Of a stretch of DNA of 64,000 bases, positions 9,695 through 41,991 are shown in pieces. The stretch is from positions 6,775 to 70,774 of the forward strand of contig CAYQMF010000014.1 in the NCBI GenBank assembly GCA_964418595.1. Direction: 5' to 3'. Positions within the stretch are counted from its first letter, which is position 1. Each line of letters opens with the position of its first letter. Position numbers and translations under genes: made by a program. Under the pieces are notes generated by a model. The model saw nothing but the letters and a program-made list of their open reading frames with translations. It was not told where the DNA came from and did not search any database. This DNA comes from an uncultured candidatus Brocadiaceae bacterium (GTDB lineage Bacteria; Planctomycetota; UBA1135; UBA2386).

Positions 9695-11534
9695 TCAGTC
9701 CGTGTCCGCCCGTTGCCGCGTGCGCAGCTCCTGCAGGCGCCGGCCGTAGGCCCGACCCACATCGCGCCGCGTGAGGCGGCCGAGCAGGCGGTTGCCGTCG
9801 GCGGCGTCGACCACGGGCAGCTCGTCGAGCTTCCTGCTGTCGAGTCGATCCATCGCCACGTGCAGGTCGTCCTTGGGCGTAACCGTGATCGGCGGCGTGC
9901 TCATCACGTCGCCGGCGATCGCCACGTGGTGCAGGCTCGCGTCGAAGGTGAACTCGCGCACGTCCCGCACCGACAGCACCCCGACGAACGTCCCGGCGTC
10001 GTCCACCACCGGGAAGTAGTCTTCGCGACTGCCCGCGATCACGTGCACCAGGTGTTCCATGGGCATGCCGACCGGCACCGTCTCCACCGGACCCGGCGTG
10101 AACACGTCGCCGACCCGCATCTTCTCGAGGAGCGCCACCTGATACTCGCCCGCGTGCGCCGGCGACAACGCCCGGTGCGGCACCTGGCTGCGATAGAGCG
10201 CCCAGCGCCGGCTGAGCAGGAACGTCAGCCCGCACACCCACATCGCCGGCAGCAGCAGCCGGTACGAGCCGGTCATCTCCGTGACCATCACGATGGTCGA
10301 GATCGGCGTCTTGGCCGCGCCGGCGAAGAACCCGCACATGCCGACGATCACGAGGTTCTGCGGGTTCTCGATCAGCCCCCACTGGTGGCAGGCGATGCCG
10401 ACCGCGCCCCCGACCCCACCGCCGATCACCATGCTCGGTCCGAACACGCCGGCGCTGCCGCCGGCGCCGATGGTGCACGACGTCGCCACGATCTTCAGCA
10501 GCGCGACCATCGCGAGCAGGCGGGCGCCGGACCATCCGGCCACGTCGCCATCCAGCGCCTGCTGCAGGATCCCGTAGCCGGAGCCGAGTACCGCGAGGCT
10601 GCGCGGATCGGCGCTGACCCACAGTGCCAGGAGCGCGAGGGCGCCGGTGAGCAACCCGCCGAGAGCCGCGACCAGCGGCCGCGGTCCGGGCACGCGCCGG
10701 AACGCGGCCTCTGCCCGCTAGCTAGAAGCACACCGTGTAGAGCGCGATCGCCGGCAGCAGGCAGAGCGCGAGCAGGGTGTACGGAAGCAGCTCCGCGACC
10801 CGCGCGAAGGTGAACCCCGGGCCCAGCACGAACAGCGGCTCCCATTCGCCCATCCAGCCGCAGAACACGCAGTAGGCCACCGCCGACGACAGGAACGCCG
10901 GCATGACGACGTCCGACTCCAGCTCCGCATCGCGGTAGAGGATCTCGGCCGCGAACAGCGCACCCGCGAACGGCGCGCGGAAGATCGCACCGACCCCCGC
11001 CGCCATCCCCGCCGAGAGCAACAGGCGCCGGCGCCGATCGCCGAGCCCGAGCACCTGCGCGAGCCACGACCCCGCGCCGGCGCCGATCTGGGCGATCGGT
11101 CCTTCACGCCCACCGCTGCCCCCGGTGCCGAGCGTGATCGCACTGGCCAGGGCCTTCACCACCGGCACGCGCCCGCGGATGTGACCGCCACGGTTGTGCC
11201 ACGCGTCGATCGCCGCGTCCGTGCCGTGCCCGGATGCCTCCGGGGCGAAGCGACGGCACAGGAAGCAGCTCACGAATCCCCCGAGTGCCGGCATCGAGAG
11301 CAGGCCGACGACACTGAGAACGACGACCGCTTCGCTCGTGAACAGGTGCAGCTCACCGCGCGGACCCACCGGCCGGTAGCCGGCGCCATGCACCAGGGCG
11401 AGCTCCGCGACGCCGTGCGCGAGGTACTCGAATGCGACTGCCCCGAGGCCCGCGACCGCGCCAACCAGCATGCACAGCAGGTAGACGGCGGAGCGATCGC
11501 GGAGGAGCGTGCGGAGGGACAGGGGCGAGCGCAT
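9695..11534 (-). pseudogene. CLC-family chloride channel/transporter with CBS pair, interrupted at 10718-10725
   Basis: GHG, GSGGREGP, GSAGVFGP motifs and two CBS domains in two ORFs (10722-11534, 9695-10693) separated by TTC TAG CTAG CGG. Confidence 0.85.
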
Positions 11535-26876: not shown

Positions 26877-29762
26877 ATGCGCCGGGCCCGGGAGGCACCA
26901 AGCAAGCACGAGCCGCTGCCCCACCATCCGTACGTGGCGTGGCTCGCGGAGGCAGTCGGCGCAGCCGCGCCGGGCACGCGAACCCTGGTGCTCACGCCCT
27001 CGGCGGAGTCGGCCGCGGCGCTGCGGACAGCGACGCTCCACGCGTGCGGGGTCCTGCTCGGCGTGCGCTTCGTCACCTCGGTGCCGCTGCTGCGCGAGAT
27101 CCTGTGGTCGCTGGGTGAACCCACGGCGGACGACCTGCTCCTGCCGCTGGAGGAACGGGCGCTCCTCCGCGAGATCCTGCGCGCCGATCCGGGCGACGTC
27201 GCGGCGTACGCGCTGCGGCACCGCCCTAGCCTCGCGGCGCTGCACGGCGCCTGCCGCGAGTGGGCGCGCGCGGGTTCCCCGGAGCCGGCGACGCGGATCC
27301 CGGCCTGGGCAGCAGGCACGCTCGCCATCGCGCGCCGGTTCGGCGACACGCTGCACGCGCACGCCCGACCGTCCCGGGCTCAGCTCGTCCGGCGCGCCCT
27401 CGACGCCCTCGCCGCCGAACGGCGACCGCGCACGAAGCTGCGCATCCTGAGCCTAGACCCGGGCTGCGCCAAGGACGTCGTGAGTGTCCTCGATGCCCTT
27501 CGCGATCGAGGCGGCGCCGAGGTCGAGGTCGCCCCCGCCGCGGAGACGCGGCCGTCGGGATTCACGCGCTCCGCGCACCCCCACGTCGAAGCCGAGCTGC
27601 GCGCGGCGGCGCATCGCTGTGCGCTGGCGTACGGAGCGGGCACGCCCCTGGACGCGATGGTGGTCGCCGCCCCGCGCCTCGGTCCCTATCTCCCCTACCT
27701 CGCGGAAGCGTTCGCGGCGGAGGGCCTGCCGGTGTGCGCAGCGGCGGAGACGCCCCTGACGCACGAGCCACGCGGTGCGCTGGCGACCCACGCCCTGACT
27801 CTCCTCTTCGATGGCGCGCCCGCGCGCACGTGGCTCGCGCTCCTCGGCAGTCCGCTCGCGCGCCGCCCGCTGCCGCCCGCGGCGCACGGAATCCTCGAGC
27901 GCGCCGCGCGCGAGCACGGCCTGTGCGGCGTCGACGCACTCGCGACGCGCGTGGCCACGCACCTGGCCGACGTCGCGCCGGAGGCGGCCGCGGGCGTGCG
28001 GCGGCTCGCCGACCACATCGCGCACGCGAGCACCGCGACGACGGCGGCGGCGAAGGCGCAAGCCATCGCCGCGCTGCTCGCCGCCGAGGTCGAGCCCCCG
28101 CTCGCCGACACGCGTGATGCGCAGGCGAAGCACCGGCTCGACGAGGTGCTGCGCGAGTTGCACGCCGCCGACCCCGAGGCGTTCGTGGCCGACGCCCGCG
28201 AGCTGCTTGCAAGCCGGGGCCTGCCGGTCGGAGAACGCGGCACCGCGTCGGTGCACGTCGTCGAGTTCGACGCTGCCGCCGCCTTCCCGGCCGCACGAGT
28301 CGAGTTGCTCGGCTTCGCCGACGATCAGATCCCTGCGTCGGGCGGCGGAACGACCTTCTTCGACGAAGCGGCGCGAACGACGTTCGGCCTGGGTGCCCGC
28401 GCCGATGCGCGCGCGGCCGAGCACGCCTGCGTCGTCCGGCTCGCGCACCTGGCGACGCGCCACCTGCACGTGAGCCGCGCCACCGCCGACGCGCAGGGGC
28501 GGCCGGTGGGGCCGACGGCGCTGCTCGAGGCCGTGGCGGAAGGCCTGCCCGCATGCGAGGAACGGCTCGAGTCGAATCACCCCGGTGCGCGGGCGGCGGC
28601 GCGCGTGGCGAGTGGAATCCTCCCGGTCGACTTCGCCATCGCGCACGCCGGCCTGCGCGAGGCGACGCTTGCCGCCACGAGCCTGCTGCTGGGCGCCCGC
28701 GCGGGCCGGCTCCGTCGGCGCGCGGCAGCGCTCGAGGACTTCGGCGGCGGCCTCGCCCACGACGGCGACGTCGGCGCCGACCTGGCGGCGACGCACGTCG
28801 CCCGGATCCTGTCGGTGAGCGACCTGCAGACGCTGGCGCGCTGTCCGCTGCAGCACATGTTCCGTCGGGTGCTCGACCTGCGGCCCCTGCCGCCGGAGCC
28901 CGACGCCCTGAGCCTCGCGCCCAACGCCCTGGGCACGGTGGTGCACGAACTGCTCGCGGAACTCGGCCCTCGCCTCGGTTCGGCCAGCGCCGCCGCGCAG
29001 CCCCCCGACGTCGCCGCCCTCGCCGCCGAGCTCGCCCCCGTGCTCGACGCGCGCCTCGCCGCGCGTGCCCCGCTCGTCCACACGCTCCCCGCGCTCCACC
29101 GGATCCTCGTGCGCCAGTGGGCGCGCGCCATCGCCGTCGGCTTCGTCGACGACGCCCGCGACCTGCGCACGCGCGCGATCACGCCGCTGCATCACGAACG
29201 CGAGATCGTCGGCGATCTCGACATCGGCCACGAGGCGCCGCTGCGCGTGCGGGGCGTCGTCGACCGGATCGATGCGATGCACGACGGTGGCCTGCGCGTG
29301 ATCGACTACAAGACCGGACGCAACCCCGACCTCGCCAACAACCCCTACGAGATCCTGCGCGGGCGTCAGTTGCAGATGCCGATCTACGCGATGCTCACCG
29401 CGCAGGCCCTGCGCGCGCGCGCGACCGAGCTGGGCGTGCGCGCCGTGCGCCCCGACTGGCACACGCACGAGGAGCTGTGGCATGTGTGGCGCCGGGCCGC
29501 CGACTTCCTCGCCGGCAGCATGCGTGACGACCTGCTCGACACGCTGCGCCGGCTCGCCGTGTTGCGGGCGAGCGGGACCTTCGTGCCGAGCATGGATCGC
29601 GAGAACGCGTGCCGCTTCTGCGACTACCGCGCCGCATGCCATCGCCTGCACCCGCCGAGTCGCGAGCGCGTGACGAGCAGCGCCCGCAGCGAGGTCGCCG
29701 CGTACTTCCAACTGCGGCAGAAGAAGCCGATCACCCGGCGGGGCGGGGCCGATGCTTCCTGA
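26877..29762 (+). CDS. AddB/RexB-like PD-(D/E)XK nuclease subunit
   Basis: C-terminal SVSDLQTLARCP, LRVRGVVDRID...VIDYKTG, QMPIY, CRFCDYRAAC; directly upstream of an AddA-like gene. Confidence 0.85.
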   Translation: MRRAREAPSKHEPLPHHPYVAWLAEAVGAAAPGTRTLVLTPSAESAAALRTATLHACGVLLGVRFVTSVPLLREILWSLGEPTADDLLLPLEERALLREILRADPGDVAAYALRHRPSLAALHGACREWARAGSPEPATRIPAWAAGTLAIARRFGDTLHAHARPSRAQLVRRALDALAAERRPRTKLRILSLDPGCAKDVVSVLDALRDRGGAEVEVAPAAETRPSGFTRSAHPHVEAELRAAAHRCALAYGAGTPLDAMVVAAPRLGPYLPYLAEAFAAEGLPVCAAAETPLTHEPRGALATHALTLLFDGAPARTWLALLGSPLARRPLPPAAHGILERAAREHGLCGVDALATRVATHLADVAPEAAAGVRRLADHIAHASTATTAAAKAQAIAALLAAEVEPPLADTRDAQAKHRLDEVLRELHAADPEAFVADARELLASRGLPVGERGTASVHVVEFDAAAAFPAARVELLGFADDQIPASGGGTTFFDEAARTTFGLGARADARAAEHACVVRLAHLATRHLHVSRATADAQGRPVGPTALLEAVAEGLPACEERLESNHPGARAAARVASGILPVDFAIAHAGLREATLAATSLLLGARAGRLRRRAAALEDFGGGLAHDGDVGADLAATHVARILSVSDLQTLARCPLQHMFRRVLDLRPLPPEPDALSLAPNALGTVVHELLAELGPRLGSASAAAQPPDVAALAAELAPVLDARLAARAPLVHTLPALHRILVRQWARAIAVGFVDDARDLRTRAITPLHHEREIVGDLDIGHEAPLRVRGVVDRIDAMHDGGLRVIDYKTGRNPDLANNPYEILRGRQLQMPIYAMLTAQALRARATELGVRAVRPDWHTHEELWHVWRRAADFLAGSMRDDLLDTLRRLAVLRASGTFVPSMDRENACRFCDYRAACHRLHPPSRERVTSSARSEVAAYFQLRQKKPITRRGGADAS

Positions 29763-32700
29763 CCGCGACGAACGGCGCCGCGCGCTCACCGACTTCGGCC
29801 GCAACCTCGTGGTCACCGCGGGCGCAGGCACCGGCAAGACGTCGCTCCTGGTCGGGCGCCTGCTGGCCGCGCTGCTCTGCCAGCACATGGACCCCGGGCG
29901 GCTCCTGGCGGTGACTTTCACCGAGAACGCCGCCGCGGAGATGCGACAGCGGCTCGCGCGCATGCTGCGCGCCGTGCCCGCGTTCCTCGACGGCGCCCCG
30001 ATCGACGGCTCGGATCGCTTCGTCCTCGAGGAACTCGGCATCGGGCCGGAGCACCGCGCCCGCGCCGCGGACCGTCTCGCCGACCTCGATCGCCTCGCGC
30101 TGGCCACGTTCCATGGCTTCTGCCTGCGGCTGCTGCAGGAGCAGGCCCGCGACCTCGACCTGCCCGCGACGCTCCGCATCGGCACGGAGGAGACAGTGCG
30201 CGAGCGCTTCGACCAGGACTTCCTCGCCTTCCTCGGCACCGCCGCGCAGGGACCGCACGCCGAGGTGCTCGACTCCTTCGAGGCCCAAGAACTGCGCGAG
30301 CTGGCCTTCGCCCTGCTGACCCTGCCGGAGGAGTCCTGGGACACGCTGGCCACGCCGTTCGTGCCCACGGATCTCGAGACGCGAGCCGCGGAACTGGACG
30401 CGCTCCTCGCGCGCTTCCCCGGTGCGCGCCCAGCGTGGCGTGACTACGCGGGGCGGCTGCGGGATCACTACGGGGTCCTGCGCACGAACCGGGGTGCGGT
30501 CGACCTCGAGCTGCTCGTCAAGACCGTGCCGAAGGCGGGCAAGCGCGAACTCGGCGAACGCGACGACCTGCTGGCGACCGAAGCGCTGGGCCAGCACCGC
30601 GACTACCTGCGCGCGCTCCTCGACACGAGCGAACCGACGATCCTGCGCGCCCGCGAGTTCCTCCTGCCCTTCCTGCACGACCAGCGCGCGAACCGGGCAC
30701 GCGCCGGTGAGCTGTCCTTCGACGACTTGCTGTTGCTCACCCGACGCGTGCTCATGGATCGCGGCGCAGTGCGCAAGCAGCTCGCCGGTCGCTACCAGTC
30801 GATCCTGGTCGACGAGTTCCAGGACACCGATCCGCTGCAGTACGACGTGCTCTTCCTGCTGGCGAGCGATCCGACGCGCGATGCGGGCGACAAGCTCACC
30901 GACCCGACCAGGCTGCCGCTGCGCCCGTGCCTGTTCATCGTCGGCGACGCCAAGCAGAGCGTGTATCGCTTCCGGCGCGCCGACGTCGGCGCCTACTTCC
31001 GCGCCGTCGCACACATCGCCGGCGACGCGTCGGCCAGCGGGCGCCTCACGCTCTCCGCCAACTTCCGCAGCCGCCCGCGGATCCTCGGGTTCGTCAACGC
31101 CGCCTGCGCCCACATGCTCGCGCCGGACGTGCCGTACCAGCTCGGCTACGAGCCGGTGCACGCGGTCCGCGACGAGAAGGGCGAAGGAGCGCGCGTAGAG
31201 CTGCTCCTCCTGCCCCGCGTCGCGGGCACGCAGCTCGCGTACGCGCGGCGCGTGCGAGAAGGCCAGGCGATCATCGACATCCTCGACGAGCTGCGCCACG
31301 ACGGCGTGGCGCTCGGCTCGATCGCGATCCTCCTGCGCGCGGCCACCGACACCGCGTGGTTGCTGCGTCCGCTGCGTCAGGCCGGCGTGCCCTACGTGAT
31401 GCAGGGCAGCCGGCGCTTCTACTCGCGGCACGAGATCGTGCTCGCCGGCGCGCTGCTCGCCGCCATGGCCCGACCGTTCGACCCGGTGCCGACGCTGGCG
31501 ATCCTGCGCTCGGCCGTGTGCGGCGCTGTCGACGCCGAGCTGGTGGCCTGGCGGAACGCGGGGCGGGCCTTCGACTACCGCGAAGATGTCGTGGGCGAAG
31601 GCCCGGTCGCCGACGGTCTGCGCCTGTTGCGCGACCTGCACGCGCGCGTGACCACGCTGCCACTGCACGCGGCGCTGCCCGCGATCCTGCGGCACGAGGA
31701 TCTCCTGCTCACCGAGGGGGCCGGCTTCGAGGGCGCGCAGCGCCTCGCCAATCTCGAGCGCCTGCTGCTCAACCTGCTGGCAGCCGCTCCGCTCGACCTC
31801 GCCGCGGCCGCAGCCCTCGTCGAGCGCCGCGCGCTGCGCGAGACCGACGACGAGGAGAGCGCGCTGTTCGAGGAAGGCGGCGAGGCGGTGCGGATCATGA
31901 CCGTACACGCGGCCAAAGGCCTCGAGTTCGACGTGGTCATCCTGCCGGACATCGCGCGCCGGCCCCCGTCGGACCCCGACGGGGAGCGTTGGGCCGCCGA
32001 GCGGCAGTTCACGGCGGACGGGCGCGAACTCGTCGCGGTGCAGGTCGGCGCCAAGGTCAACCGCGCCGCACGCGTGGCACGCATCGAGGCGCGGCGCCAC
32101 GACGACGCGGAGGAGCGCCGGCTGTTCTACGTCGCGAGCACGCGCGCGCGCGAGCGGCTCCTGCTGCTGGGGCACGACGACGACGACGTGGTGCGTCAGT
32201 CACGCTGGCAGGCCGATCTCGTGACCGCGCCCCTCGGCGGCATCGCGGGCTTCGCGCTTCGCCAGCTCGACGAGCCGCGGCTTCGCCCCGTCGCGCCGTC
32301 CGACGCGGAGGCCTTCGACGTCGCCCCCGCCGTACACGCTCTCGACGCGCACCGAGCCCTCGCCGTGCGCGCCGCGCAGGAGGCGCGGCCCGCTGCCCGC
32401 ACTGCGAGCGGCGAAGGCCCCGACCAAGACCAGCCAGCCGTGCCCGGACCCGCCCGCAGCCTCGCGCTGCGCCTGGGCGAGGCCGCGCACGCGTATCTCG
32501 CGCTGGTCGACTTCGCGGCGTCGGAGGTCGATCGCGACCTCCTGCGGCGCGTGGCGCCGGAGCCGGACATCTGCGCTCCGCTCGAGGACTGGCTCGCTCG
32601 CTTCCACACCAGTCCGCTGCGCGCGCGCCTCGCCGCCGCGCGCTCCGTCGAGCGCGAACTGCCGGTCGCGTACCGCACCCCGGATGGGCGCACGGTGCAC

Positions 32701-32889
32701 GGTGTCCTCGACGTCCTCACGCAGGCCGCCGACGGCGCGTGGCACATCCTCGACTGGAAGACGGATCGCAGCCCCGACCACGAACGCCACCGCGCGCAGC
32801 TCGACGCCTACGCACACGGCGTGCAGCTCGCGCTCGACCTTCCGGATCCGCCGGGCGCGCAGGCTGTGTTCCTGCAGGACTCGACCTGA
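29752..32889 (+). CDS. addA: AddA/UvrD-like helicase-nuclease
   Basis: AGAGTGKT, VDEFQDT, VGDAKQSVYRFR, NFRS, TVHAAKGLEF, EERRLFYVASTRA, C-terminal GVLD...LDWKT...QL..Y. Confidence 0.88.
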   Translation: MLPDRDERRRALTDFGRNLVVTAGAGTGKTSLLVGRLLAALLCQHMDPGRLLAVTFTENAAAEMRQRLARMLRAVPAFLDGAPIDGSDRFVLEELGIGPEHRARAADRLADLDRLALATFHGFCLRLLQEQARDLDLPATLRIGTEETVRERFDQDFLAFLGTAAQGPHAEVLDSFEAQELRELAFALLTLPEESWDTLATPFVPTDLETRAAELDALLARFPGARPAWRDYAGRLRDHYGVLRTNRGAVDLELLVKTVPKAGKRELGERDDLLATEALGQHRDYLRALLDTSEPTILRAREFLLPFLHDQRANRARAGELSFDDLLLLTRRVLMDRGAVRKQLAGRYQSILVDEFQDTDPLQYDVLFLLASDPTRDAGDKLTDPTRLPLRPCLFIVGDAKQSVYRFRRADVGAYFRAVAHIAGDASASGRLTLSANFRSRPRILGFVNAACAHMLAPDVPYQLGYEPVHAVRDEKGEGARVELLLLPRVAGTQLAYARRVREGQAIIDILDELRHDGVALGSIAILLRAATDTAWLLRPLRQAGVPYVMQGSRRFYSRHEIVLAGALLAAMARPFDPVPTLAILRSAVCGAVDAELVAWRNAGRAFDYREDVVGEGPVADGLRLLRDLHARVTTLPLHAALPAILRHEDLLLTEGAGFEGAQRLANLERLLLNLLAAAPLDLAAAAALVERRALRETDDEESALFEEGGEAVRIMTVHAAKGLEFDVVILPDIARRPPSDPDGERWAAERQFTADGRELVAVQVGAKVNRAARVARIEARRHDDAEERRLFYVASTRARERLLLLGHDDDDVVRQSRWQADLVTAPLGGIAGFALRQLDEPRLRPVAPSDAEAFDVAPAVHALDAHRALAVRAAQEARPAARTASGEGPDQDQPAVPGPARSLALRLGEAAHAYLALVDFAASEVDRDLLRRVAPEPDICAPLEDWLARFHTSPLRARLAAARSVERELPVAYRTPDGRTVHGVLDVLTQAADGAWHILDWKTDRSPDHERHRAQLDAYAHGVQLALDLPDPPGAQAVFLQDST

Positions 32890-40005: not shown

Positions 40006-40040
40006 GCGCCGCGCCGCCACCCTCGCGACCCGGGCGCGAG

Positions 40041-40745
40041 CTACTTGCCGTCGCCCGGCTTCTTGGCCTGCGCCTTGAGGTACGCCTCGTACAGCTTGCG
40101 GTACTTCTCGCTCACCTCGGGCACCCCGCCGCGCTGCTTCACGCCGCCGAGGTATTCCGGCAGGTTGCCCCAGTCGGCGGTGCCACCCTCGCGCTGCACG
40201 GTCTCCGTGCCGTCGTCCTTGGGCTGTCGCCTGGCGGTCTTGTTCTGCGCGTCCTTCGGGTTCTCGCCGCCGCCCGGCTGCTTCTGCTCGCCGGGCTGCT
40301 GCTCGTCGCGCTTCACCATGTCGGGCGTGTCGTTCTCCTTGCGCTGGCCGTTCGGCTGGCGCTGCCCCTGCGGGCGCTGACCCTGCTCGCCATCCTGCGG
40401 CTCGCCATCCTGCGGTTGCTGGCCCTGACCAGGGCCGTCACCCGACTTTCAAAGCCCCGACTTGCTGAGCTCCTCGATCAGCTCGTCGATCCCCTTCTGC
40501 ACGCTCTTGCTCGTGCCCTGGGCCTCGTCGAGCATCTTCTGCAGGCCTTCGGCGCTGCGCTTCGACGCCTCGGTGGCCGCCTTGCCGATGCCACGCTGGG
40601 AGAGCAGGCGGTCGATCGTCTGCATCTCCTCCGAGACCTTGGACGCGATGCGTCGCAACTGTTCCTGCGGGGTCGGACCCACTTGCGCTGGCAACATGCT
40701 GCCAGCGAGACACAGGGCACTGAGGGTGAGCAGTCTGTTGCGCAT
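40041..40745 (-). CDS. Secreted coiled-coil/Gln-rich protein with one in-frame UGA (codon 99); candidate selenoprotein, 234 aa
   Basis: ORFs 40449-40745 and 40041-40319 are in the same frame, separated only by TGA (40449-40451): ...ELSKSGL-UGA-KSGDGPGQ...WGNLPEY...YRKLYEAYLK; AGGAG SD and signal peptide MLPAQ. Confidence 0.7.
40413..40448 (-). promoter_or_regulatory. Candidate bacterial SECIS element
   Basis: With U of UGA as position 1: G16-G22 pair with C25-C31 (GGCCCUG-GU-CAGGGCC), G23 U24 at the apex; weaker lower stem between 8-13 and 34-39. Confidence 0.65.
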
Positions 40746-40887: not shown

Positions 40888-41991
40888 GTGTCCCGTCCCT
40901 TCCTCCTCCGCCGGGTCCTGCCGGCCGCGTGCAGCGCGCTTGCCGCGCTGATCCCCGCGCCGATGGCGGCGCAGGCATGGCCGGTCCTGAGCGCGCGGAG
41001 CCTCGAGCGCGGCCTCGTTCGCGAACTCGAGAGCGCCCTCACGCCGTGGCACGAAGGCAACCCGGCCGCGGCGCGTGCACGCCTGGACCGGCTCCTCGAT
41101 GCGACGGGCTCCGTCGACCTCGGTCCCCTCGGCTACGCCCGCGCCCTGCGCCTCGGACTCGCCGGCGAACCGGAGCGAGCGGCCGCAGCCCTGGACGACC
41201 TCCTCGCGCACGACCCGGCACCGCCGCAGACCGCCGCTCGCCTCGCGGCCCAGATCTACCTCGACGCCTTGCGCGAGCAAGTGAGCCAACGGGCGCTCGA
41301 CGTCGGCCAGGTGCATCTGCTCGCGCAACGTGCGCTCGACCTGAGACAGCGGCCCGCCATCGTCGCCGCAATCATCGGCGACGCGCTGGCCACCCCGCGC
41401 CTGGACCCCGCCGCCGAAGCGATGCGCCGGGCGCTCCTCACGCGCCTCGCGGATGCCGGAAAGCCGGCCCCGACGTCGAGCGACCTACCGATCGAGGAGG
41501 CACGCCGCGAGCCGGAGCCCCTTGCCCTCACGCTGCATTCGCTCAGCGGCAAGCGCATCGATCTCGAGTCGCTGCGCGGGCGCGTGGTCCTCCTCCACTT
41601 CTGGGCGGAGTGGTGCCCGGTCAGCGCCGCCGAGGCCCCGACGCTCGTCGCCGCCTTCGAACGCTTCCATACCCGCGGCCTGCAAGTGATCGGCATCGCG
41701 GCGGACGACGACGGCGATGCCGTGCCGGTGCGCGCCGCTGCGGCGCGGCTGCATCTCACCTGGGAGCACGTCCTCGACGGTGAAGCGCTCAGTGGTCCGT
41801 TGGCGCTTCGCTTCGGCGTCGAGAGCCTGCCGGCGGCGATCCTCCTCGACCGACGCGGGGTGCTCCGGGCCAGCGGCGAGAGTCTCCGCGGCGACGCCCT
41901 CGCCCCGCGGATCGAGAAGCTCCTCGACGAACCGCCGCCGCCGATCTCACTGCCGCGGCGAGAACGGGATCGAGATCAGGACCGAAGGTGA
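40888..41991 (+). CDS. Secreted TlpA/thioredoxin-like protein with CxxS active site
   Basis: Signal peptide ending MAAQ; helical N-domain; C-terminal GRVVLLHFWAEWCPVSAAEAP...FGVESLPAAILLDRRG. Confidence 0.85.
   Translation: MSRPFLLRRVLPAACSALAALIPAPMAAQAWPVLSARSLERGLVRELESALTPWHEGNPAAARARLDRLLDATGSVDLGPLGYARALRLGLAGEPERAAAALDDLLAHDPAPPQTAARLAAQIYLDALREQVSQRALDVGQVHLLAQRALDLRQRPAIVAAIIGDALATPRLDPAAEAMRRALLTRLADAGKPAPTSSDLPIEEARREPEPLALTLHSLSGKRIDLESLRGRVVLLHFWAEWCPVSAAEAPTLVAAFERFHTRGLQVIGIAADDDGDAVPVRAAAARLHLTWEHVLDGEALSGPLALRFGVESLPAAILLDRRGVLRASGESLRGDALAPRIEKLLDEPPPPISLPRRERDRDQDRR

Follow-up and report, generated by a model that had tools for sequence, protein, structure and literature searches.

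Does a reading frame that is interrupted by a single TGA encode two short proteins, a dead gene or one selenoprotein? The question is raised by a 64,000-nucleotide stretch of DNA (the window in what follows; GenBank assembly GCA_964418595.1, contig CAYQMF010000014.1, positions 6,775 to 70,774) from an uncultured candidatus Brocadiaceae bacterium of the Planctomycetota. On its minus strand, positions 40745..40041 form a single 234-codon frame whose sole interruption is a TGA at codon 99. An original prediction, made by reading the DNA without database searches, had proposed that selenocysteine (Sec) is inserted at this UGA, and the comparative work described here supports that proposal. The window gene very probably encodes one secreted protein of 234 residues in which codon 99 is decoded as Sec, because its relatives share the TGA, include counterparts with Cys in its place and maintain a covarying hairpin just beyond it, and because the domain downstream is under purifying selection. 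It looks like a member of an undescribed bacterial selenoprotein family that makes use of a known recoding mechanism.

The Reading Frame and Its Relatives

Translation of the window gene gives 98 codons (starting MRNRLL), the junction ELSKSGL-TGA-KSGDG and then 135 sense codons ending in ...YRKLYEAYLKAQAKKPGDGK-TAG, so that the two open reading frames (ORFs) originally described are indeed one frame broken only at codon 99. Since 22 of the 29 window genes terminate with TGA, this codon is an ordinary stop in the source genome. A scan of the window for further in-frame TGA codons produced 40 candidates, mostly spurious GC-rich frames, of which none was convincing except that at 40451.

When 5.8 billion proteins were searched, seven full-length, uninterrupted homologs of 226-233 amino acids (aa) emerged that span both halves of the frame. 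Two of them, P0001 and P0002, carry Cys in the TGA column, reading K-C-G-[LM]-C as against K-S-G-L-TGA in the window; P0003 has Gly there, and three other close homologs have a short deletion. A scan of one genome per GTDB species yielded six loci, all in metagenome-assembled Planctomycetota genomes. Loci L001 (LSKSGL-TGA-SGSGEGSGQG) and L002 (LSKCGL-TGA-SGGGEGSGQS) carry an in-frame TGA at the column of the window, L003 reads C-G-L-C at this position, and a scan of metagenome contigs returned a single locus that is identical to L003.

The family as a whole is unannotated and derives from metagenome-assembled Planctomycetota genomes; a profile search of 1.84 billion representative proteins gave 312 representative members at E <= 0.001. 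Among the best 150 profile matches, ten are N-terminal fragments; they measure 96-173 aa, nine of them 96-108 aa, and stop just past the second helix of the N-terminal domain. At the DNA level each of the 10 ends at a TGA, beyond which the frame stays open into the C-terminal domain on every contig of sufficient length. There are 12 distinct TGA-bearing genes (the window gene, L001, L002, L010, L011, L012, L013, L014, L016, L018, L019 and L020), in which the coding sequence is conserved before as well as after the TGA, namely in the N-terminal domain and in a C-terminal WGxLP...EKYR domain, and with protein identities between clades of 35-60%. Their local motifs, with U at the TGA, are [SC]-G-L-U, G-[CT]-U-[PA]-F-G, G-[ST]-U-(S)-[SG]-G-C-S-E-C and, on one low-coverage contig, G-T-U-S-G-G-G-U. 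P0082 has S-S-S-C-P-F-G where TGA genes have G-C-U-P-F-G or GT-U-PFG. Cys and UGA, the two states that the original prediction had raised for codon 99 of homologs, therefore both occur, TGA in 11 other genes and Cys in P0001, P0002, L003/L007 and P0082.

Beyond the TGA, ratios of nonsynonymous to synonymous substitution rates (dN/dS) for the 38-codon C-terminal core are 0.21, 0.10 and 0.06 in pairwise comparisons among the window gene, L001 and L002, which indicates that the domain after the UGA is under purifying selection among TGA-bearing genes. The calculation was restricted to close pairs, values between distant clades being saturated and biased by codon usage.

A Hairpin Downstream of the UGA

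Numbered from the U of the UGA (nucleotide (nt) 1, at 40451), the window RNA reads UGA AAG UCG GGU GAC GGC CCU GGU CAG GGC C. It forms a hairpin with a stem of 6 base pairs (bp), in which GGCCCU (nt 16-21) pairs with AGGGCC (nt 26-31), and with a GGUC loop at nt 22-25 (40427-40430) that contains G23 and U24. The minimal hairpin has a folding energy of -11.6 kcal/mol and the spacing between the UGA and the loop is 18 nt. The location of GGUC in the original prediction holds, but the 7-bp stem given there does not, since a G22-C25 pair would leave an impossible loop of 2 nt. It had further been pointed out that U12, U21 and U24 are supplied by the final T of GGT, CCT and GGT codons, unusual in this DNA, and codon counts bear this out: T-ending codons make up 5.7% of the codons in window genes, where GGT accounts for 11.8% of Gly codons and CCT for 4% of Pro codons.

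Conservation of the hairpin with covariation had been suggested as a check on its role as a selenocysteine insertion sequence (SECIS), and the relatives provide both. In 11 of the 12 TGA-bearing genes a stem of 5-7 bp is capped by an invariant GGUC loop, which in 10 of these 11 hairpins starts 22-28 nt from the U of the UGA (18-24 nt after the UGA). L018 (1525-1543) has another apical loop on a 7-bp stem, GCUGGCC-CGGGC-GGCCAGC, still with G among the first positions of its loop. L011 contains two UGAs; its loop starts at nt 46 when counted from the first of them and at nt 31 when counted from the second.

An alignment of ten hairpins was used both for the analysis of covariation and to build a covariance model. 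The five loop-proximal pairs are intact in all ten sequences, 87% of the cells are paired over seven pairs and covariation is seen at two base pairs (U-A/C-G/U.G and U-A/C-G). The covariation score was reached in only 2 of 500 column shuffles, and pairing collapses in a control in which the 3' arm was slid by 1-3 nt. The covarying changes are non-synonymous or involve rare codons (Pro/Ser with Gly/Ser; Gln to Arg with UCU to UCC) and the Gly codon of the loop is always the rare GGU in the GGUC hairpins; a constraint at the level of the RNA is therefore indicated. RNAalifold, applied to the UGA and the following ~45 nt, predicts the GGUC hairpin and nothing else, the lower stem not being conserved. 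The covariance model has one significant match in the window (40418-40439, 34.9 bits, E ~1e-6) and also recovers L016, which was absent from the training set.

The Cys form L003/L007 gives a weak covariance match of 18.9 bits to a degraded hairpin, GGCUC-GGGGCA-GAGCC (L003 2357-2378, L007 2346-2367), with GGG and UCG codons where Sec forms have GGU and UCU, and this looks like a fossil SECIS left behind by conversion of Sec to Cys. The Gly form L008 has no covariance match at the hinge site, only one of 9.7 bits (E ~9) elsewhere in the locus. A scan of window positions 40350-40500 against Rfam gave noise only and no match to a SECIS family.

One further observation concerns L011 itself (605-622, contig NODE_32575, 1.3x coverage). 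Its two in-frame TGAs lie four codons apart, GT-U-SGGG-U-SEPSHQHG, and a single GGUC hairpin is located 27 nt past the second; either the gene is a double-Sec form or this contig of very low coverage contains a sequencing error.

Weighing the Alternatives

Several results weigh against Sec insertion. The genes selA, selB, selC and selD were not found within the 64-kb window; ARAGORN reported only a tRNA-Pro there and no tRNA-Sec, and Pfam searches of 39 window ORFs gave no SelA, SelB or SelD. Several Planctomycetes carry complete selA, selB and selD sets (PMC4807772), which lends plausibility at the level of the phylum only. Folded as a single sequence, the UGA-proximal 71 nt do no better than shuffles (z = 0.15, with 103 of 200 folding as well or better); such a fold is uninformative in DNA of 72% GC, and the hairpin is significant solely through comparison with relatives. 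The bulged U17 of the Escherichia coli fdhF SECIS is absent, the window stem being a perfect 6 bp, and no conserved bulge is present in the 11 hairpins. In some Cys forms the hinge Cys, too, is followed by an SGQ peptide, so that part of the nucleotide conservation could reflect constraint on the protein. No domain or structural match in Pfam, NCBIfam or Foldseek points to a function. Lastly, the 30-residue hinge lacks Cys in 110 of the 130 full-length representatives, and Sec is therefore not needed for the core function of the family.

Only one rival explanation retains some life. Termination at the TGA could be programmed, or the gene split, giving a helical protein of 98 residues and perhaps a C-terminal one with its own initiation, with the hairpin acting as a translational or mRNA-stability element or assisting SelB-independent near-cognate read-through (Trp or Cys). 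We regard this as unlikely, even though TGA is a normal stop in this genome, the Sec machinery was not found within the window and public gene callers give two separate ORFs (P0026, P0038 and others). Splitting of bacterial selenoproteins into two short ORFs is a routine annotation error, and in public databases the halves of this family are called as separate hypothetical proteins in just this way. A truncated product of 98 residues would probably be made in any case, since Sec insertion in bacteria is usually inefficient. What a split gene leaves unexplained is the presence of Cys, the only residue chemically equivalent to Sec, at exactly the TGA column. The hairpin, moreover, fits the SelB-binding consensus in both loop sequence and distance from the UGA, and neither a start codon nor a conserved initiation site follows the TGA closely, the first ATG lying 44 codons downstream within a variable linker.

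That the gene is a pseudogene, inactivated by a recent nonsense mutation (for example TGC to TGA) or by duplication of AAGTCGGG and open downstream merely through its high GC content, is very improbable. The TGA is one substitution away from the Cys codons TGC and TGT, long open frames are common in DNA of 72% GC, and another window gene, for a CLC channel, is frameshifted. The 8-bp direct repeat AAGTCGGG does flank the TGA, with one copy on either side, and a recent inactivating duplication was accordingly the main alternative in the original prediction. It is refuted by L001, L002 and L010, which have GCTTTGA (G-L-TGA) without a second copy of the repeat; the TGA is therefore older than the repeat. 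Eleven other distinct genes, at 35-60% protein identity, share the TGA, and this divergence excludes a single contaminating sequence as the source of the TGA loci; purifying selection acts on the downstream domain and compensatory changes maintain the hairpin. Error in sequencing or assembly, or a genome-wide reassignment of TGA to sense, is scarcely credible: the window probably comes from a metagenome-assembled genome with at least one frameshifted gene, but twelve independent assemblies from different projects have TGA at this site, and the stops of the window genes speak against a reassigned code.

A further curiosity of annotation is P0089 (L014 2258-2584), a 108-aa N-terminal fragment of a Sec form that is named "methyl-accepting chemotaxis protein" in JGI/IMG, likely a mis-annotation of a truncated selenoprotein ORF.

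Proposed Mechanism and Protein Architecture

Sec insertion at codon 99 would proceed as follows. As the ribosome nears the UGA the mRNA just past it would fold into the GGUC hairpin (nt 16-31) and, by analogy with E. coli fdhF, the hairpin would bind SelB carrying Sec-tRNA(Sec), which would outcompete release factor 2 at the UGA. The full-length product would comprise a signal peptide, a two-helix hairpin, the hinge Sec, ~90 disordered Gln/Gly-rich residues and a small conserved C-terminal domain (Table 1). We infer that the window protein incorporates selenium and is exported.

Table 1. Positions, in window coordinates, of the elements of the candidate selenoprotein gene and of its divergent neighbor (CDS, coding sequence; pLDDT, predicted local distance difference test score)
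Feature	Position	Strand	Basis
Probable complete selenoprotein CDS, 234 codons including UGA-Sec codon 99	40041..40745	minus	uninterrupted 226-233 aa homologs cover 87-99%
Predicted signal peptide, aa 1-20, MRNRLLTLSALCLAGSMLPA	40686..40745	minus	hydrophobic N-terminus
N-terminal helical hairpin domain, aa 26-95, helices 26-52 and 61-95	40461..40670	minus	AlphaFold2 pLDDT ~70-78; motifs EEMxEIDRLL, GIDELI
In-frame UGA, codon 99, hinge motif S-G-L-U, probably read as Sec	40449..40451	minus	TGA at same column in 11 other distinct genes; Cys in several homologs
Candidate SECIS upper stem-loop, GGCCCU-GGUC-AGGGCC, nt 16-31	40421..40436	minus	fold, covariance model, covariation
Gln/Gly/Pro/Glu-rich linker, aa 100-190, predicted disordered; SECIS in its 5' end	40176..40448	minus	pLDDT 44-57
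Conserved C-terminal domain, aa 192-229, WGNLPEYLGGVKQRGGVPEVSEKYRKLYEAYLKAQAKK	40059..40172	minus	invariant residues; dN/dS 0.06-0.21
Genuine stop, TAG	40041-40043	minus	
Divergent neighbor, TlpA/AhpC-TSA/Redoxin-like, 367 aa, monothiol W-C-P-V-S	40888..41991	plus	Pfam

Cleavage of the signal peptide before Gln21 is likely; A20 is nearly invariant and Q21 invariant in 57 family members. The linker is of low complexity and variable in length across the family and shows no secondary structure in an AlphaFold2 model built from the 57 sequences (mean pLDDT 59.8), where residues 96-196 are unstructured and short helices occupy residues 197-203 and 213-227. Within the C-terminal domain W192, G193, L195, P196, Y198, RGGVPE and EKYR are invariant in the closest homologs. 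Sec99 would lie four residues past helix 2 and, there being no Cys after the signal peptide, would be the only Cys or Sec of the mature chain, as had been recognized at the outset; the model also agrees with the earlier view that it belongs to a flexible linker rather than to a thioredoxin fold.

Searches with the window protein, two other Sec forms and ten distant members found nothing below E = 0.069 in Pfam or below E = 0.002 in NCBIfam, all far under the curated cut-offs, and Foldseek gave no match at E <= 0.001 with what is a low-confidence model. The best match among PDB structures, CsoR (E = 0.69), is not significant and was not used.

The distribution of Cys in the family bears on what the hinge residue might do. 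Twenty of the 130 full-length representatives have Cys in the hinge; none of these has Cys downstream of it and only two have Cys in the helical domain. Since the nearest neighbors of Sec forms variously have Sec, Cys or neither, and Cys occurs in only these 20, the hinge chalcogen would be an accessory that is repeatedly gained and lost and not a catalytic core. Some family members cluster several Cys and His near the hinge chalcogen (U-SSGCSECSGQGHG; CSGCSQC...PHD), a hint of metal binding or of more than one cross-link. A complement-like Cys-Gln thioester (C...SGQ) was considered and dropped because the spacing from Sec to Gln varies from 4 to 9 residues or more.

Most likely the hinge Sec serves as a single reactive chalcogen, the least certain part of our proposal, and a thioredoxin-type catalytic center is unlikely. 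It could form an intermolecular selenylsulfide or diselenide or, together with partner chains, help to build a metal site; the setting would be an assembly in the periplasm or cell envelope. We thus put forward, tentatively and with more doubt than conviction, a non-enzymatic selenoprotein: a secreted envelope protein whose single Sec, at the hinge between a coiled-coil-like helical hairpin and a long disordered region, cross-links (through a diselenide or selenylsulfide) or ligates metal, in a family that gains and loses Sec, Cys or neither.

Genomic Neighborhood

In the clade of the window the gene order is a divergent TlpA/Redoxin-like gene, the selenoprotein gene and a convergent gene for a RecD2 helicase. 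L001, L002 and L008 retain this order, whatever the hinge state (Sec, Cys or Gly). The active site of the neighbor, W-C-P-[VI]-[ST] across the window, L001, L002 and L008, is a monothiol and not CxxC. A 1-Cys redoxin beside a secreted protein with a single Sec is suggestive; a functional link was considered and left unsupported because the neighbor is the same whether the hinge has Sec, Cys or Gly.

The distant members have a different setting, the gene being the last cistron of an operon with overlapping stop and start codons (L021 1-10306; also L004, L005, L006 and L013-L018). Its partners there are a giant PQQ_2 beta-propeller protein, a toroid resembling prenyltransferases and squalene cyclases, a DUF4175 protein and a pair of large coiled-coil proteins (~460 and 516-750 aa); Pfam matches are limited to DUF4175, PQQ_2 and the prenyltransferase-like protein. 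None of these partners has a copy in the window. The composition of the operon suggests an assembly located in the cell envelope.

Other features of the window were noted in passing. The 35-nt gap between the convergent RecD2 and selenoprotein stops (40006-40040) contains an inverted repeat, CUCGCG-ACCCGGG-CGCGAG, without a U-tract, which may be a terminator-like hairpin that the two genes share in both directions. DNA-repair genes are plentiful in the region: a PD-(D/E)XK nuclease (961 aa) adjoins a UvrD-helicase with PD-(D/E)XK (1045 aa) at 26877-32889 on the plus strand, an AddB/AddA-type pair, and RecD2 and MgsA/RarA are nearby. On the minus strand, 9695-10693 and 10722-11534 encode the N- and C-terminal halves of one Voltage_CLC/CBS chloride channel in different frames, and the frameshift near 10720 marks either a real pseudogene or an assembly indel.

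Comparison with Known Systems

The apical loop of the E. coli fdhF SECIS has the sequence GGUC. Like that element, the candidate in the window is a short hairpin within the coding sequence after the UGA (nt 16-31), with an apical loop of 4 nt that holds G23 and U24. The minimal fdhF element consists of 17 nt (nt 15-31), starts 11 nt after the UGA and has its key G and U at positions 23 and 24 (PMC8659212), in accord with the original prediction, which had placed G23-U24 at the fdhF offset and had remarked on the missing U17 bulge. The window family differs from fdhF in that its lower stem is not conserved, in that the loop of relatives lies 3 or 6 nt further from the UGA, as the general bacterial SECIS model allows, and in that the host protein is unrelated to molybdopterin enzymes. 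Given how close the element is to that of fdhF, E. coli may be able to express the gene without any engineering, and the claim of Sec insertion is thus cheap to test.

The bacterial SECIS model (bSECISearch, Zhang and Gladyshev) calls for a loop of 3-9 nt, an upper stem of 4-16 bp, a G among the first two loop positions (G[G/U]), a spacing of 16-37 nt and a minimum free energy <= -7.5 kcal/mol (summarized in PMC13188914). With a 4-nt GGUC loop, 6 bp, 18 nt and -11.6 kcal/mol the window hairpin lies within all of these limits. The minimal hairpins of L016 and L019 are weaker than the model requires, at -6.7 and -5.0 kcal/mol, and the loop of L011 is 42 nt from the first of its two UGAs.

A 2026 review catalogs 119 prokaryotic selenoprotein families and subfamilies, for example the CC/Se motif family, KCU-star, SelW-like and GrdA (PMC13188914, Table 1). 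As in the cataloged CxxU, CU and TxxU families, Sec and Cys exchange at one site, with Sec, Cys and loss interspersed among close relatives, and the motifs C-x-x-U (L002, L010), C-U (L012, L013, L020) and [ST]-U occur. Unlike these families, the one described here matches no Pfam or NCBIfam model and is not among the 119 of that review; it is predicted to be a helical hairpin with disorder and not a thioredoxin or other enzyme fold; the window motif S-G-L-U has no partner Cys, and most members have neither Cys nor Sec. The uncharacterized and model-less "hypothetical protein GOS_A" (PMC2398784), whose sequences are absent from the text of that paper, may be related to it. The family would add an entry to the ~119 that are known, from a phylum, the Planctomycetota, whose selenoproteome is little explored.

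The predicted periplasmic and secreted selenoproteins (DsbA-like, DsbG-like, thiol:disulfide interchange and TlpA-family UGC proteins) are thioredoxin-fold oxidoreductases with UxxC or UGC sites, whereas the window protein has neither. What it shares with them is a predicted signal peptide and a Sec that would face the oxidizing periplasm, and a TlpA-like redoxin is the conserved neighbor of its gene. To our knowledge nearly all known selenoprotein families are thioredoxin-like or metal-cofactor enzymes. The present family would be atypical, with Sec as the only chalcogen residue in a predicted helical hairpin and disordered chain, a setting that is probably non-catalytic. If the hinge Sec does cross-link or ligate metal, the protein would represent the first bacterial selenoprotein of a structural or adaptor type and offer an unusually clean natural setting in which to compare Sec with Cys. 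Close relatives that have Sec, Cys, Gly or a deletion at one hinge, in the same gene neighborhood, constitute a natural series for the selective value of Sec.

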